Notes: generated by a model not told the origin, from the letters alone. A stretch of 64,000 nucleotides of DNA from Polaromonas sp. (GCA_965228025.1 CBDDGX010000032.1:35113-99112); one strand, 5' to 3'; numbered from the stretch's first letter, positions 20,030 through 28,312 are shown. Made by a program: numbers and translations.

Positions 20030-20178
20030 AAAAACAGGCTTTCGCTGTTGCGGCAGCAGCGAAGCGCAGGGCAACTGCCCTTCCGGTTATGCAGTGAACC
20101 GCGTACCATCGGGACCGTAACAGGGAGTTACAGCGTCTGAACAGGGAAATCATCCCGGCTGCGCATCGCACCATAACT

Positions 20179-21084
20179 ATGAAAATTTGCGACAACAGGC
20201 TGGCGGGGACGTTCAGGCCTGCATTGATGTGTACGGCGCTGCTGGCGATGGCGCTGGCCCTGCCCTCCATGGCCCTGGCGGCCGACAAAACCCCAGCTCG
20301 ACGCACCGTGCACATTCGCGGCTCTGTGTCATTCGCGGGCATCGTGCAGGCCCTGGCGGAGCAGTACATGCGCAACAACCCTGGCACTGCGGTCGTCGTC
20401 AGTGGCGGCGGCACATCGCGCGGCTACCTGACACTGCTCGACAACACGGCCGACATGGCCATCGTCAGCGGATCTGCCTCTGAAGACACCGAGGACGAGA
20501 TCGCCCGCAGCGGCGTCAAGCTGGTCAATGTGCCCTTCCGCCAGGTGGCGATGGCGCCTGCGGTTCATTTCAGCAACCCCATCAGCGACCTCAGCCTGGT
20601 GCAGCTGCGCGAAATTTTCTCGGGCCGCATCAGCAACTGGAAGGCTGTCGGCGGCAAAGACGTACACATCAACGTCTACATCGGCCCGCCTGGTGACGGC
20701 ATCACCAACGCCTGGAACGACAAGGTGCTCGGTGACACGGACACCTACACGCCCCGCGCGCGCAACGCCGAACTCGAACAGCGGATTGCCGGGGTCGGAA
20801 GCGACCCGGCAGGCATTACCTATCTCGCCACCGAGTCGCTGAAGAACCAGGAGCTCAAGGTCCTGTCGGTGAACAAGGTCATGGCTGGCGCCGACAGCGT
20901 GGCCAGCGGGCGCTACGTTCTGCTGGCACCGCTGATGTTTATCACGCGGGAAAAACCGTCACCCGAAGCGCAGAAATTCCTGCAGTTCGTTGGCAGCCTG
21001 TCGGCACCGATTTCAAACTCGGTCTTTGCGCTGCCACCCGCACCGGCCAGACCAGCCAACCCGGCTGCATCGGGCACGCGATGA
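20179..21084 (+). CDS. PstS-like periplasmic binding protein A (divergent)
   Basis: Signal peptide; IRGS, VSGGGTSRG, HFSNPISDLSLVQLREIFSGRISNWKAVGG, SGRYVL match the PstS/PBP_like_2 pattern. Confidence 0.8.
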   Translation: MKICDNRLAGTFRPALMCTALLAMALALPSMALAADKTPARRTVHIRGSVSFAGIVQALAEQYMRNNPGTAVVVSGGGTSRGYLTLLDNTADMAIVSGSASEDTEDEIARSGVKLVNVPFRQVAMAPAVHFSNPISDLSLVQLREIFSGRISNWKAVGGKDVHINVYIGPPGDGITNAWNDKVLGDTDTYTPRARNAELEQRIAGVGSDPAGITYLATESLKNQELKVLSVNKVMAGADSVASGRYVLLAPLMFITREKPSPEAQKFLQFVGSLSAPISNSVFALPPAPARPANPAASGTR

Positions 21085-21914
21085 AAAGACGCTATCTCGC
21101 GGGCGGACTTGCCGCCGCCCTGGTCGGTGCCGCCGCCTACCCCGCATGGCAATGGGTGCAGCTGCGCCGCAGGCCGGCCGGCCAGAATGCGCTGCTCATA
21201 GGTGGCGCATCCGCGATGTACGACCTGAACATCGCGCTGGGCAGGGAGTTTGAAAAACGCTATGGCGTGAAAGTCATCGTCGAACGGGGCGGCTCGCTGC
21301 AGGGCCTGCTGGCCGCCAAGCGCCATGCCATCGACATCGCCGCCATGGCCCGCGACCTTGAAGGCGCGGAAGCAGAGCCGCAGGCACACAACCACCTGAT
21401 TGCACGGGATGCGATTGCCATCGTGGTGAATGCCAAAAACCCGATCCGGCATCTCAGGCAGACACTGGTCCGAGACATCCTGACCGGCAAAATTGACAAC
21501 TGGAAGACGCTGGGCGGCCCCGACCGGCTGATCGAAGTGGTGATGCGCCCACGCCATACCTCCACCAGCCGCTACGTCAGCGAGGTGGTTCTTGCAGGCG
21601 CAGACCTCTCGCTGAAGTCGCACTTCAGGAAAACCCGTGACGAACTGCTGGACTTCATCCGCCAGCACCCGGACGCCATAGGCTGCGTGGCAACGGACGA
21701 TGGCGGTTTGCCTGCGGACATCCCGGCCCTTGAAATCGACGGTATTCCCATCACGCGCGAAACCATCCTCAGTGGGCGTTACCCTTTCGAGCGCTCCCTG
21801 TACCTGATGACCTACGGCAAGGCACGCAAGGAGGTGCTTGACTTCATCGCCCTGGCGGAATCACCCGACGGCCAGGCCATCGTCGACCGCTCCGGTTTCA
21901 TACCGGTCAGATAG
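21081..21914 (+). CDS. PstS-like periplasmic binding protein B
   Basis: IGGAS, GGSLQG, DAIAIVVNAKNPI, ILTGKIDNWKTLGG, RPRHTST, SGRYPFERSL. N-terminal KRRYL plus hydrophobic stretch (Tat signal or anchor). ATGA overlap. Confidence 0.82.
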   Translation: MKRRYLAGGLAAALVGAAAYPAWQWVQLRRRPAGQNALLIGGASAMYDLNIALGREFEKRYGVKVIVERGGSLQGLLAAKRHAIDIAAMARDLEGAEAEPQAHNHLIARDAIAIVVNAKNPIRHLRQTLVRDILTGKIDNWKTLGGPDRLIEVVMRPRHTSTSRYVSEVVLAGADLSLKSHFRKTRDELLDFIRQHPDAIGCVATDDGGLPADIPALEIDGIPITRETILSGRYPFERSLYLMTYGKARKEVLDFIALAESPDGQAIVDRSGFIPVR

Positions 21915-21933
21915 CAGCAGGTACGAGCAGCAT

Positions 21934-23280
21934 ATGGCCAACGAAGCACGCGGAATACTCAACGACTGGCTCACGCGCATGCAGCGCAACGACCGCCTGC
22001 GCAGGGCACTGGCCATCCTGGCCATCCTGGGGCTGCTGGGCATCGCCATGCACTACGTGTATGAGGTGCTGCCCAGGACCTACGCGCTGAAGATCACCGG
22101 AGGCGACATCCTCGGCAACCGGCACTACCTGGCAGGTACCTTGCGCGACGACATCGTGCCGCTCGGCGTGCGTCTGGATGTATTGCCGACCGACGGTTCA
22201 CAGGAAGCGCTGTCGCTGGTGTCACAGGGCAAGCTCGACTTTGCGCTGATACAGGGCGGCCTGGAGCTGCCTTACCCGAATGTGTCGCATGTGGCCAACC
22301 TTGCGCCCGAGCTGCTGCACTTTCTCGTCAGCCCCGACGTCAAGGACATTGCCGGCATGCGCGGCAAGCGCATCAACCTGGGCAGTAAACGCGGCGGCAC
22401 GCGGGTCATCGCCAAGCAGTTGCTCGAATTTTCAGGCATGCGCGACGGCGTGGACTACGTTGAAACCAACCTCAGCACTGAAGACCTGCTGGCCCTGCGC
22501 AAGGACCGCGTGCCCGAGGTCATCGTCATCACCTCCTTCGCACCTTCCAACGTGGCGGACTACATCGTCAAGCAGTATGGCTACAGCCTGCTGGAGATCC
22601 CTTTCCCCAACGCCCTCGCGCTGCGCCAGGGCTGGGTGGCGGACACCAAGGTCATGGCCTATATGTACAGCGTGCAGCCGCCCGTGCCGCCGCGTGATGT
22701 GCGGACTGTGGGCGTCAACCTGCAGCTGGTCGCGAACTCGAACCTGGACCCGCGCGCCGTGTTCAAGGTGCTGGAAGGCGTTTACAGCCCCGACCTGCAG
22801 ATGCACCTGAAGATGAAGTTTGATGAAGACAAGATCCTGGAGTCATCAAGCTATCCGCTGTCTGCCGGCACCCGGATGTTCATGGACCGCAAGAACCCTT
22901 TCCTTTCACAGGCCACGCTCAAGAAGGTCGAGGCGCTTTTTGGCCTGGTGCTGTCGGTGGCCTCCACCCTGATTGTGGTGTTCAAGTGGTTCAAGGGTGC
23001 GCCGCCCGAGGTGGTCAAACCCGAGACCGACGATGCATTTTTTGTCGTCCTGATCGAACGTGTGCTGGCCGTGGATGCGGCCGTCGATGCGGTGCCGGAC
23101 GACCCGCCGCCCCCGTCGCAACTCGCTGCCTGGCAAAAAGAACTCTCCGACATCAAGGCGACCGCGATGCGGCGCCTGACAGCCAACGGACTGCTGGCCA
23201 ATGCCAATCTCGTGCCGCAGCTTTTTTCGGCCATCACTGACTCCCGTGCACGGCTCGATTTTATGAAGGACAAAGCATGA
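21934..23280 (+). CDS. TAXI-family solute-binding domain flanked by two TM helices, with a C-terminal tail
   Basis: ITGG, TDGSQEAL, GKLDFALIQGG, ELLHFLV, GKRINLGSKRGGT. TM near residues 25-45 and a second TM (ALFGLVLSVASTLIVVFKWF). Confidence 0.75.
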   Translation: MANEARGILNDWLTRMQRNDRLRRALAILAILGLLGIAMHYVYEVLPRTYALKITGGDILGNRHYLAGTLRDDIVPLGVRLDVLPTDGSQEALSLVSQGKLDFALIQGGLELPYPNVSHVANLAPELLHFLVSPDVKDIAGMRGKRINLGSKRGGTRVIAKQLLEFSGMRDGVDYVETNLSTEDLLALRKDRVPEVIVITSFAPSNVADYIVKQYGYSLLEIPFPNALALRQGWVADTKVMAYMYSVQPPVPPRDVRTVGVNLQLVANSNLDPRAVFKVLEGVYSPDLQMHLKMKFDEDKILESSSYPLSAGTRMFMDRKNPFLSQATLKKVEALFGLVLSVASTLIVVFKWFKGAPPEVVKPETDDAFFVVLIERVLAVDAAVDAVPDDPPPPSQLAAWQKELSDIKATAMRRLTANGLLANANLVPQLFSAITDSRARLDFMKDKA

Positions 23281-24035
23281 CAACACACCTTCCCGGCACC
23301 GTTAGACGCGTGGGCACAGCCCTTGTCTGGGTGGCTGCGATTGCACTGACCGGCTGCGCCTCGGTCGCACCATCTGCCACCTCGACCAAGGCGGTTTATG
23401 AAGCGGCGATTGCCGACGCCGCCGTGGCCAGCCCGCGCAAGGTCTCGCCCCTGATGCCGCTGCCGGCCGGCGAAAAAGTTCGGGTAGTTTCCTGGGTGAC
23501 GGAAAGCCGCACGCCATGCAAGGCACCCGACACCAGCTGCGCCACCACCACACCGCCTGACCGCATCTGGGTGACGCTGGCTGGCGAGGTGCAGGCGAGT
23601 TGCCGTGCCTGGGGCTTGAAAGGCGATGCATTACGCCAGCGCATTGAACAGCTGCTCGGCCTGCCCATGGACCCGCCGCCACAGTTTCGCAAGGCGAAGT
23701 TTGTAACCATGGAGCTTGCCCGTGATCGCCTCGACAGGCCCTGCCTGGGTGTCGATGACAGCAACCCGCAGGGGCCGGTCTGCACTGTCGGCATCCAGGC
23801 CAGCCGGGCGCCCGATGTGCGCGATTACGTGCTCAGGCAAATGGCGGACTCATTCGTGGTCGATGGCGCAGGCGGCCCCGGCTACCCTTTCACCCGTCTG
23901 GGTTACACCTACGACTGGAACCAGGTCAATGCCAGGCCCAACCACTACGGGGCCTCAGAATTTCTGGTGCAGGCCAGTACACCTGCAGCCGTGATCACGC
24001 AGCAGGATACCGACGCTTACTGCGCTGCGCCCTAG
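23277..24035 (+). CDS. Conserved hypothetical lipoprotein
   Basis: Lipobox ALTGC; RIEQLLGLP, RPC, GYPFTRLGYTYDW, YGASEFLV; ATGA overlap. Confidence 0.7.
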   Translation: MTTHLPGTVRRVGTALVWVAAIALTGCASVAPSATSTKAVYEAAIADAAVASPRKVSPLMPLPAGEKVRVVSWVTESRTPCKAPDTSCATTTPPDRIWVTLAGEVQASCRAWGLKGDALRQRIEQLLGLPMDPPPQFRKAKFVTMELARDRLDRPCLGVDDSNPQGPVCTVGIQASRAPDVRDYVLRQMADSFVVDGAGGPGYPFTRLGYTYDWNQVNARPNHYGASEFLVQASTPAAVITQQDTDAYCAAP

Positions 24036-24047
24036 TCGATCGACTCG

Positions 24048-24992
24048 GTGTCACTGCTGACCCGCTACCTCACTGACGCACTGAAGGCGCAGCTGTCACA
24101 GCGTGTGACACCCAACGGCTACCGGCTGGAGGATGTGACTCGTTCCGGCGTGCGCCATGCCGACAGCCATATCGGTATCTATGCGCCTGACTTCGAGAGC
24201 TACGACATTTTTCGTGAGCTGTTCGGGCCGATAGTTGAAAACTTCAAGGCGCCGGCCCCTGCACATCACACCGATCTGGCATACATTGATCCGGCTGCTG
24301 TCGTTTCCACGCGGATCAGGGTGGCGCGCAATCTCACCGGTCATGCGTTTCCCTCCGTGATGTCAAGGCAGCAACGCCTGGCTGTGGAGGAGGCCATCAC
24401 GCAGGCCTGCAAAACACTGGCACCTGACTTTGAGGGCACGGTCACGCCGCTGGGGCACCTGCCACAGGCCGCTTTAAATGACATGGTTTCAAAGCGACAG
24501 GCCTTTGGGCCGGACGACAAATACATGGCCGCAGCAGGCATCCATGATGACTGGCCGCTTGGACGGAGCGTCTTCAACACACACGCCGGGCATCTGTCTA
24601 TCTGGATCAACGAAGAAGACCACCTGCGCGTGGCCGTGGTCATGCCAGGGGCCTGTGTTGCTGCTTGCCAGGAGGCGATGACCTTCGTCATGTCGCGCCT
24701 GGCTGCGTCGCTTGATTTCTGCTCGGATGCAGAGTTTGGCTACCTCACCAGTTGCCCCAGCAATGTCGGCACCGGACTGCGTGCCAGCTACCGGATAGAC
24801 AAGAGCCTGAAAGCGCCGCAAACAGGCACGCTGGAGCGGCTGGAGGCTGCGGGCTACCTACAGCTGCGCTCACCGTCGGGCGAACATGCCGCGCAAGGCG
24901 GTGAGCTGGTTGACGTGGGCCTGCGCCGACGGGTGGGTCTTTCCGGGCGCGACACGCTCGAAGGCATGAAGGCCCTGCTGTCGCGGCGCTGA
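24048..24992 (+). CDS. ATP:guanido phosphotransferase (phosphagen/arginine kinase-like, with N-terminal domain)
   Basis: SLLTRYLT, SG..DSHIGIYAPD, STRIRVARN, WP.GR, WINEEDHLR, GYLTSCPSNVGTGLRAS, RSPSGEH, RRRVGLS. Confidence 0.9.
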   Translation: MSLLTRYLTDALKAQLSQRVTPNGYRLEDVTRSGVRHADSHIGIYAPDFESYDIFRELFGPIVENFKAPAPAHHTDLAYIDPAAVVSTRIRVARNLTGHAFPSVMSRQQRLAVEEAITQACKTLAPDFEGTVTPLGHLPQAALNDMVSKRQAFGPDDKYMAAAGIHDDWPLGRSVFNTHAGHLSIWINEEDHLRVAVVMPGACVAACQEAMTFVMSRLAASLDFCSDAEFGYLTSCPSNVGTGLRASYRIDKSLKAPQTGTLERLEAAGYLQLRSPSGEHAAQGGELVDVGLRRRVGLSGRDTLEGMKALLSRR

Positions 24993-27034: not shown

Positions 27035-28312
27035 TGGAGTGAGCCCCTGGGACTGGACCACGGAAAAGAGATGAACTGATGCGCTTGCTGGGCCCTCATA
27101 GAAGGAGAGGTCTATGTCATCAAGAGGTCCATATCGCAGGCACACTGCGCAGTTCAAGCTGCAGCTGTGCAGCGACATTCGTTCAGGCGCACTCGGGCGC
27201 CGTGATGCGCAGAAGAAGTATGCGTTGTCCGCCAATCTCATTCAGATGTGGCTGACGCAGTTCGATCGCGGTGAACTTAGCACCAAGGAGGTTGAGGCGG
27301 ACGTCATCGCCGAGTACGAGGCCAAGGTCGCCGCCCTGGAGCGCAAAGTGGGGCAGCTCACGATGGAACTGGATCTGGTCAAAAAAGACTACACGCCTGC
27401 GACTCGTGAGCGACAACGAGAACTCCTCCATCATCACCGGCCCGAAGCCTGCTCCATCCGACAGGGGTGCAAAGTGATTGAACTGCCGCGCAGCACCTTT
27501 TACTACCGTTCCATGGGCGACACCGACGGTTTGACAGATACCAAACTGGTCGAGCTCATCCAGAGCATTCAGGATGAGCTACCCGGCTACGGCTATCGAC
27601 GCGTCACGCACGAGTTGCGCCAGCGTGGCCATGTCGTCAATCACAAGCGAATCGCACGCCTCATGCGAATTCATGGCCTGGGCATAAAGCCGCACCGCCA
27701 GTTTGTTCGCACGACGGACAGTAACCACGAATCGCCGATCTTCCCGAACTTTTACCGCAACATGATCCCAAGCCGACCTGATCTGGCGTGGGTCGCGGAC
27801 TTCACGTAAATCCGTATCGTGACAGGTTTCTGCTACCTGGCGGCAATCCTGGATGCGTGCAGTCGCAAGGTTGCGGGCTACGCCATCTCCCGCCGCATTG
27901 ATACGCCGCGGGCACTGGCAGCGTTACGCTCAGCACTCGAGAGCCGACGACCACCGCCAGGGTGCATTCACCATACGGATCGCGGCTGTCAATACGCGAG
28001 CGACACGTACCGGCGAGCACTGCGGGAGGCCGGGCTTCGCGGCTCGATGAGCTCACCGGCCAATCCGTATGACAATGCTCAGGCAGAGAGCTTTATGAAG
28101 ACGCTTAAGGTCGAGGAGGTGTACTTGGCCGGCTACGAGACCTTCGCGGATGTGGCAACACGGTTGCCGCGCTTCATCGAAGAGGTCTACAACGCCAAGC
28201 GGCTTCACTCGGCACTTGGCTACCGTTCACCCAACGAATTTGAATTGCAACTTGCTCAGGAGGCGGCTTAGTTCTGATGAACCCGGCGGTCCAGTCCCAG
28301 GGGTTCACTCCA
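27035..28312 (+). mobile_element. IS3-family insertion sequence (inactivated)
   Basis: TG...CA ends; IRs TGGAGTGAGCCCCTGGGACTGGACC / TGGAGTGAACCCCTGGGACTGGACC (24/25); TTA duplicated on both sides. Confidence 0.92.
27114..28271 (+). pseudogene. IS3 transposase OrfAB with internal TAA (27807-27809)
   Basis: [30 protein letters not shown]; both halves are in the same frame. Confidence 0.9.

Follow-up and report, generated by a model that had tools for sequence, protein, structure and literature searches.

The stretch of Polaromonas sp. DNA analyzed here (GCA_965228025.1 CBDDGX010000032.1:35113-99112; 64,000 nucleotides, hereafter the window) carries, on the plus strand at positions 20179-24992, a cluster of five genes in which four envelope proteins are encoded together with a phosphagen kinase. 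All five open reading frames were confirmed at the coordinates first given to them in a preliminary description of this DNA. The first gene, pbpA (20179..21084), encodes an exported binding protein of the PstS family (PBP_like_2) with a remodelled ligand site, and the second, pbpB (21081..21914), encodes another PstS-family binding protein in which the phosphate-ligand pattern is kept. These are followed by the TAXI gene (21934..23280), whose product carries a TAXI-family binding domain between two transmembrane helices, as well as a cytoplasmic N-terminal peptide and tail; by a lipoprotein gene (23277..24035), encoding a protein with the lipobox LTGC and six further conserved cysteines from a family without a Pfam model; and by the kinase gene (24048..24992), which starts with GTG and encodes a cytoplasmic two-domain phosphagen kinase of the arginine-kinase type, 314 amino acids (aa) in length. 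We refer to the envelope genes upstream of the kinase gene as the module.

The preliminary description had presented these genes as tightly coupled on one strand, and direct reading of the sequence bears this out. ATGA stop/start overlaps join pbpA to pbpB (21081-21084) and the TAXI gene to the lipoprotein gene (23277-23280), the ATG of the TAXI gene (21934) comes 19 nt after the pbpB stop codon (TAG, 21912-14), and the GTG of the kinase gene (24048) comes 12 nt after the lipoprotein stop codon (TAG, 24033-35). Alignments of TAXI relatives begin at ATG 21934 and not at an earlier TTG (21838). The gap between the lipoprotein stop and the kinase start measures 9-12 nt in 11 of 19 loci, 23-30 nt in five and 48-177 nt in three. 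The kinase start codon is GTG, or ATG in a few loci, with no Shine-Dalgarno sequence visible. The short gap of 9-12 nt and the missing ribosome-binding site therefore suggest that translation of the kinase may be coupled to that of the lipoprotein gene. Judging from these junctions, the five genes are very probably co-translated.

Upstream of pbpA, a conserved motif, (A/C)AAACGCGG-TAnnAT-CCGC, is found 75-137 nt before the start codon in about 14 of 16 orthologous loci. In the window, this motif includes a promoter-like -10 hexamer, TACCAT (20104..20109, plus strand), 75 nt upstream of the pbpA start, which a generic sigma-70 scan did not call. The presumed 5' leader also contains a small hairpin, GTAAC-AGGGA-GTTAC (20117..20131, plus strand), read by eye; hairpins read in the same way occupy the same leader position in orthologues with different stem letters (TGCCG...CGGCA in locus L014, CCCGC...GCGG in L026). 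We infer that motif and hairpin together (20095-20135) may constitute the promoter and leader of the operon. Rfam returned no known RNA family in the window at a permissive threshold or in nine related loci at the gathering threshold, and a riboswitch or other known RNA in the leader or operon was rejected for want of a match. We also dropped a Pho-box reading of the CTGT repeats upstream, which had been made by eye only and whose repeats are not conserved in the orthologous upstream regions.

The preliminary description had tied its proposal to the occurrence of the five genes together in other genomes, and they do co-occur: the same order was found in about 17 other species-level Comamonadaceae genomes and, in addition, in two metagenome contigs. 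When the loci of this kinase clade were scanned at one genome per species, 17 of the 21 showed the order pbpA-pbpB-TAXI-lipoprotein-kinase, as far as the contigs reach. Of the 41 related genomes compared, 3 carry both the kinase and the TAXI gene and the other 38 carry neither (Fisher p = 9e-5). In 301 evenly sampled genomes of the family, the kinase occurred twice; the lipoprotein was found in these 2 genomes and in one contig-edge fragment. Because the order recurs in about 17 species-level genomes and the kinase and TAXI gene are co-present exactly among the 41, the five-gene arrangement is beyond chance. The five genes are one accessory operon, which Polaromonas and neighbouring Comamonadaceae pass on or lose as a whole. 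Record titles place the origin of many of the source genomes in glacier-fed streams, at Antarctic sites or in groundwater. Two metagenome-assembled genomes (MAGs) in which a Polaromonas-type operon was found bear the titles 'Asaia bogorensis' and 'Ramlibacter sp. 2FC' (among L019, L018 and L020/L029); such names disagree with the genes present and are probably binning or naming errors.

The kinase matches both domains of the phosphagen kinases, PF02807 (ATP-gua_PtransN, 1.7e-19) and PF00217 (ATP-gua_Ptrans, 7.6e-32), above the Pfam cut-offs, and it is the sole PF00217 gene in the genome. It aligns over its full length with the arginine kinase 4rf6 (phmmer, 5.7e-98), with the motifs STRIRVARN, NEEDHLR, CPSNVGTGLRAS, GEH and RRRVG in register, as is the cysteine of the reactive CP(S/T)N motif (CPSN here). 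These catalytic motifs are invariant or nearly so in 18 clade members. Relative to 4rf6, the protein has about 24 N-terminal residues fewer, and its interdomain linker and C-terminal loop are shorter. The guanidino-specificity loop is as long as that of 4rf6 and conserves D-S-x-(I/V)-G-(I/V)-Y, with a variable Gly position (H here), and the substrate cannot be read from it. The protein arginine kinase McsB shares the ATP:guanido phosphotransferase catalytic domain with this enzyme. McsB structures match at 1e-19 with an alignment that begins only at residue 84, in the catalytic half, and the best score against the NCBIfam McsB-type models is 96 bits, at most a quarter of their cut-offs (385-679); unlike McsB, the kinase has the PF02807 N-terminal domain. 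Taken together, these features argue for a catalytically intact phosphagen kinase of the small-molecule type and not for McsB, in agreement with the ATP:guanido phosphotransferase first proposed.

A search of 5.8 billion proteins placed the kinase in a clade of about 85 clusters, all of about 314 aa and 47-100% identical, with hosts in Polaromonas, Rhodoferax, Caenimonas and further Burkholderiales, and seen only in Comamonadaceae. In the kinase tree the clade is monophyletic on a long stem (length 1.09), and its next relatives, like any other phosphagen kinase, are at most 38% identical to it. Our literature search found no paper mentioning a phosphagen kinase in the genera of this clade, which is apparently undescribed. 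Bacterial phosphagen kinases are rare and have been studied in a handful of species, with arginine kinases characterised from Desulfotalea psychrophila, Myxococcus xanthus, Sulfurovum lithotrophicum and Moritella sp. PE36, and their physiological role is debated (PMC6429109). The window kinase resembles these enzymes in its two domains, its catalytic motifs and its specificity loop of arginine-kinase length; they are likewise patchy in bacteria, and several of their hosts are cold-adapted. It differs from them in belonging to a separate, long-stemmed clade of low identity and compact size.

Turning to the envelope proteins, PbpA has a signal peptide by hydropathy, matches PF12849 at 2.4e-32 and finds its best solved relative in PstS 4gd5, while PbpB matches PF12849 at 1.6e-28. 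Both thus share the PBP_like_2 fold of the PstS component of PstSCAB, with PstS proteins as their closest solved relatives. They differ from it in scoring below the NCBIfam cut-offs (136 and 128 bits for PbpA and PbpB against 206.6 for TIGR02136; 24 and 19 bits against 205 for TIGR00975) and in the lack of pstCAB. PbpB keeps all four PstS ligand motifs (GG(A/S)S, GGS, D..R and R...(T/S)xT). In PbpA, across all module variants, a conserved GPPxDG(I/L)T replaces the PstS R..SGT motif, changing R to G, S to D and T to I at the ligand positions. This modifies the earlier view of both proteins as phosphate-binding-like, in that the canonical ligand residues are retained in PbpB only.

The TAXI protein matches PF16868 above its cut-off (2.7e-13) and TIGR02122 below it (46.9 bits against 84.35). 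Hydrophobic helices, which anchor the domain in the inner membrane, lie at residues 25-43 and 332-350, and an AlphaFold2 (AF2) model places them at 20-45 and 322-353. In this model (predicted local distance difference test, pLDDT, 79), the second membrane helix is followed by a tail of about 100 residues predicted to form three helices. The periplasmic part resembles the glutamate-bound TAXI proteins 8u79, 1us4 and 9ibo (Foldseek TM 0.75-0.77). The N-terminus is rich in arginine, with conserved arginines, and both this cytoplasmic peptide and the tail are conserved whatever gene lies downstream.

Neither Pfam nor NCBIfam matches the lipoprotein, and the distant members of its family have no Pfam match either. 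Its 355 homologues share an invariant PGYPxTRLGYTYDW...YGASEF motif, and the protein is probably disulfide-rich. No fold was assigned, since the AF2 model (pLDDT 83) had no PDB match at E < 0.3. The family is widespread: its metagenomic relatives number more than 400 and reach as low as 25% identity (window 23277-24035; L100-L175). An attempt to read its function from the neighbours of distant homologues was abandoned, as none was conserved among 71 loci outside the module subfamily. Overall, Pfam and NCBIfam matches together with membrane topology uphold the identities first given to the products of the cluster: two PstS-like proteins, a TAXI protein with two transmembrane helices, a lipoprotein and the kinase. 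The cluster contains no pstCAB-type or TRAP permease, as had been noted from the start, and pstC, pstA and pstB are found neither in the operon nor in its flanks. None of the five proteins matched a PADLOC defence model at E <= 0.01, and membership of a defence system was rejected on that result.

The module also occurs without this kinase. Searches with the lipoprotein and TAXI sequences revealed a further set of relatives, 50-60% identical, elsewhere in the Burkholderiales. The most frequent kinase-less arrangement, found in six independent loci, has a permease pair after the module, the genes overlapping or nearly abutting: a 610-617-aa permease with an N-terminal cNMP_binding domain, Na_sulph_symp/CitMHS and a weak DctM match, and then an ABC_sub_bind protein. 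The lipoprotein gene is variably present in these loci. Permease-type operons of 5-6 genes were recorded at L094:4723-11651, L197:4278-10224, L198:4259-10973 and L200:4291-10215, one of these records being Noviherbaspirillum sp. In some relatives a Crp-family regulator follows the module, and no such 3' gene follows it in L102/L103, L176 and L199. In L095, and also in L097, the module is followed by a canonical phosphagen kinase of 363 aa that is 35% identical to the window kinase, and the module copy itself is only 52-54% identical. The presence of a canonical kinase behind so distant a module copy therefore argues for a real functional link between the two.

Four further genomes, out of 401 sampled evenly across the order, contained the triad of pbpA, pbpB and the two-helix TAXI gene alone, at 37-46% identity. 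Because these four carry the triad only, PstS-like/PstS-like/TAXI is the conserved, autonomous core, to which the lipoprotein, the permease and the kinase are additions. The preliminary description had joined the envelope genes and the kinase in one functional unit. They do form a conserved, co-inherited unit, but the autonomy of the triad shows that the envelope genes are not partners specific to the kinase.

The kinase, in turn, is found beside other partners. In six loci of the same clade it lies 3-30 nt behind the gene for an MscS-type channel of 490-500 aa with a C-terminal cNMP-binding domain; these loci were found in Caenimonas aquaedulcis, Rhodoferax, Burkholderiales PBB3 and one contig from a metagenome. 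A gap of 3-7 nt, often combined with a TTG start codon, was measured behind the MscS gene in sister loci. A basal member of the clade lies behind an uncharacterised membrane protein. The MscS-linked loci nest among the module-linked loci in the kinase tree, and throughout the clade the kinase gene stands at the end of an operon for envelope or transport functions. Outside the clade, two Chloroflexota carry a distant phosphagen kinase behind an ABC exporter that has a fused cNMP-binding domain. Kinases directly 3' of inner-membrane transport proteins with cNMP domains were thus observed in two phyla (L053:693-4547, L072:7387-10963, L007:8497-10945). A canonical PR(S/N)AT cassette is present in the cNMP domains that lie beside kinases and missing from that of the DASS-type permease. 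The uncharacterised proteins beside the kinase in L007, L009 and L095 are unrelated, and a shared uncharacterised partner of the kinase was rejected.

None of 57 other bacterial kinase loci examined contained the module, and 55 had neither a module gene nor a cNMP-domain neighbour. The conserved neighbours of other bacterial kinases reflected only lineage-specific synteny, for example MoxR/DUF58-type genes in Desulfobacterales, and were set aside. One Rhodoferax MAG contains two contigs with the MscS-kinase pair (among L019, L018 and L020/L029). In a metagenome contig (L008:2252-4837), the MscS-cNMP gene is split, the kinase frame leaves the family alignment after about residue 228, and a fragment of an IS66 transposase adjoins the pair; this copy is probably decaying or the product of an assembly error.

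In the TAXI tree, the modules with the short kinase form one clade (support 99), whose sister is the kinase-less module of L102/L103. Together they fall within the permease-type modules; the L095 module, with its canonical kinase, lies on another branch. This looks like two recruitments of a kinase, and a single ancient linkage with fast divergence of the kinase is equally possible: placing the L095 kinase with the Comamonadaceae clade was not rejected by an approximately unbiased (AU) test (p = 0.42). Therefore, although the tree suggests it, we do not claim convergent, independent recruitment of two kinase lineages. Either history, with one recruitment or two, implies selection for the pairing of module and kinase.

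At non-synonymous sites the kinase gene diverges 2-4 times as much as its neighbours, and its synonymous divergence (dS) is higher too. The ratio of the two (dN/dS) lies at 0.16-0.25 for the kinase, indicating purifying selection, and most comparisons give 0.05-0.19 for the neighbours; the kinase is thus functional but less constrained. Identity to related loci also varies along the operon. Positions 20342-22700 of the window (2.4 kb) are about 100% identical in nucleotides to L028:6300-8660 (limits approximate), and identity to that locus drops to 85-90% in the lipoprotein gene and to about 70% in the kinase gene; elsewhere in the region it is 70-95%, and the TerC side of the locus is closest to L011. 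This 2.4-kb tract, with dropping identity beyond it, therefore points to recent homologous recombination within the operon, the locus being a recombination mosaic. We rejected a swap of the kinase cassette as the source of the low kinase identity, which is better fitted by the homogenising effect of the L028-like tract from pbpA to the TAXI gene combined with the faster rate of the kinase.

As for the surroundings, the genes upstream of the operon encode exonuclease III, a GntR regulator and an aldehyde dehydrogenase. On the downstream side the TerC gene is convergent, and an IS3-family transposase in two pieces (HTH_21 part 27114-27809, rve part 27819-28271) lies 2 kb past the operon. In a Polaromonas MAG (L014:2325-4165), the exonuclease III and TerC genes adjoin directly and the five-gene cluster is 2 kb away. 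Because this arrangement differs, the position of the cluster relative to exonuclease III and TerC is not fixed. An empty-site comparison showed that synteny around xth is not conserved among genus members without the cluster.

Based on these observations, we propose that the kinase serves as an accessory ATP/phosphoryl buffer co-expressed with an envelope anion-binding module, a reading to which we give a probability of about one half. Our model suggests that translational coupling would keep synthesis of the kinase in step with that of the module, and that the module would bind or sense an anionic solute at the cell surface. The best guess for this solute, on the basis of PbpB, would be phosphate or a phosphoryl-bearing compound. 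In other Burkholderiales, the module may pass its solute to, or work with, the DASS-type permease with its cNMP-binding domain, and in this lineage, where the permease pair is absent, the kinase would occupy its position. The kinase would run ATP + arginine <-> ADP + phosphoarginine, and phosphoarginine would act as a fast ATP/phosphoryl buffer for the membrane process that the module serves. We hypothesize that module and kinase are linked at the level of co-expression and physiology, and probably not through a shared substrate. In animal cells, creatine kinase is coupled to membrane ATPases and channels. Because the other partners of the kinase are also inner-membrane transport proteins, we regard this coupling as the closest working analogy, and as an analogy only: the likeness would consist in a phosphagen kinase placed beside membrane transport proteins, here by gene position. 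It differs in that no partner encoded in the window is an ATPase, and here the association is genetic.

Several observations weigh against this proposal. PbpA appears to be without a phosphate site, since its arginine and hydroxyl (Ser/Thr) ligands are gone and an acidic residue (Asp) has come in. The permease used by relatives of the module has no orthologue in this genome. The kinase occurs without the module in sister loci, and the module occurs without the kinase in L102/L103, L176, L199, the four order-level genomes and all permease-type loci; neither needs the other. At the lipoprotein-kinase junction, the three loci with gaps of 48-177 nt leave room for separate signals, and co-transcription of the five genes is something that we infer. 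Finally, the evolution of the kinase at 2-4 times the rate of the module genes would fit a loosely constrained passenger as well, and the AU result counts on the same side.

Such a passenger is the alternative that fares best, and we regard it as possible though doubtful. According to this explanation, the kinase gene is a promoter-less accessory cistron that survives by hitch-hiking, in the 3'-terminal position, on well-expressed operons for envelope or transport proteins, with no specific tie to the module, and buffers ATP generally, for instance in cold, energy-poor habitats. It would account for the three different upstream hosts within one kinase clade (the module, the cNMP-binding MscS and the uncharacterised membrane protein), for the conservation of the module without the kinase in many lineages and for the weaker constraint on the faster-evolving kinase, and the mosaicism of the locus and the IS3-family transposase 2 kb downstream fit it too. 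It is opposed by the joint gain and loss of kinase and module in the genus, by a linkage kept across at least 17 species, and by the recurrence of this linkage with a kinase only 35% identical and a module only 52-54% identical. Moreover, repeated chance adjacency is unlikely because the kinase family is present in less than 1% of the genomes of the family.

It is less likely that the TAXI protein is a receptor with interchangeable effectors, reporting ligand occupancy to whichever protein is encoded downstream and here switching the kinase on or off, with the signal perhaps arriving through docking of the two PstS-like proteins on it. The modelled topology of the TAXI protein, with its conserved cytoplasmic N-terminal peptide and three-helix tail, would suit such a role, as would a triad that forms the conserved core without any permease in many genomes and a 3' gene that varies between the kinase, the cNMP-domain permease and a Crp-family regulator. 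On the other hand, Pfam recognises no signalling domain in the tail, the tail is equally conserved where nothing follows the module, and sister copies of the kinase sit behind unrelated proteins.

The phosphagen kinase reaction is reversible, and the operon could in principle serve to scavenge phosphagens: the binding proteins would capture phosphoarginine or another N-phosphoguanidine released by eukaryotes, a permease encoded elsewhere would import it, and the kinase would run in reverse to yield ATP + arginine. The phosphate site kept in PbpB, the acidic, remodelled site of PbpA and the binding of an amino acid, glutamate, by the closest solved relatives of the TAXI domain are compatible with this idea. 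We nevertheless consider it improbable: the operon is without a permease, the genome is without an orthologue of the module's usual permease, and permease loci lack the kinase just as kinase loci lack the permease, the full pathway never being found together. The preliminary description had suggested that the module might feed a phosphagen pool or handle a phosphoguanidine, and these ideas stay hypotheses, as the analysis found no sign of phosphoguanidine binding or import or of a phosphagen pool fed by the module.

Least probable is McsB-like arginine phosphorylation of a protein, with the Arg-rich TAXI N-terminus and its conserved arginines as a possible target: although the only NCBIfam matches of the kinase are McsB-type models and several clade members are named 'protein-arginine kinase' by the Joint Genome Institute (JGI), the McsB scores fall far below their cut-offs, the small-substrate N-terminal domain PF02807 is present, and the arginine kinase alignment runs from end to end (E = 1e-98) against 1e-19 from residue 84 for McsB structures.

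With respect to known transport systems, the window TAXI protein is like those of TAXI-type binding-protein-dependent secondary transporters in its fold and membrane anchoring. The module's relatives are like these systems in being closely coupled to an elevator-type permease from the ion-transporter superfamily (Na_sulph_symp, weak DctM). The window protein differs in having its domain between two helices, in its cytoplasmic tail and in lying always behind two PstS-family proteins; the permease of the module's relatives differs in being DASS-like with an N-terminal cNMP-binding-like domain, and not DctQM or GltS. The fused DctQM membrane component of TAXI-TRAP systems is absent beside the window TAXI gene, and the kinase is in the permease's place. 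Elevator-type secondary transporters that depend on solute-binding proteins are an emerging theme, as seen in TAXI-GltS of Bordetella pertussis (PMC12344293), and membrane-anchored TAXI proteins are credited there to Roden et al. 2023. The TAXI-GltS class is the nearest published concept for the permease-type relatives of the module. Our literature search found no description of a module-kinase operon or of the adjacency of a kinase and a cNMP-domain transporter, consistent with the earlier statement that no described pathway has this architecture. The module-kinase architecture appears to be new, built from known kinds of parts.

The operons in which the triad is combined with a cNMP-domain DASS-type permease are candidates, judged from their gene content, for an undescribed class of binding-protein-dependent elevator-type secondary transporters alongside TAXI-GltS. 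If the receptor explanation were true, a periplasmic signal from a phosphate-like nutrient would directly set the activity of the kinase, and hence the phosphoarginine/ATP buffer, and the module would represent a new form of bacterial transmembrane signalling with interchangeable outputs (kinase, cNMP-domain permease or Crp-type regulator). The compact Comamonadaceae clade adds to the few bacterial phosphagen kinases studied, and the position of the kinase as the last, apparently coupled cistron of transport operons makes the role of phosphagens in bacteria accessible to ordinary genetics and enzymology.

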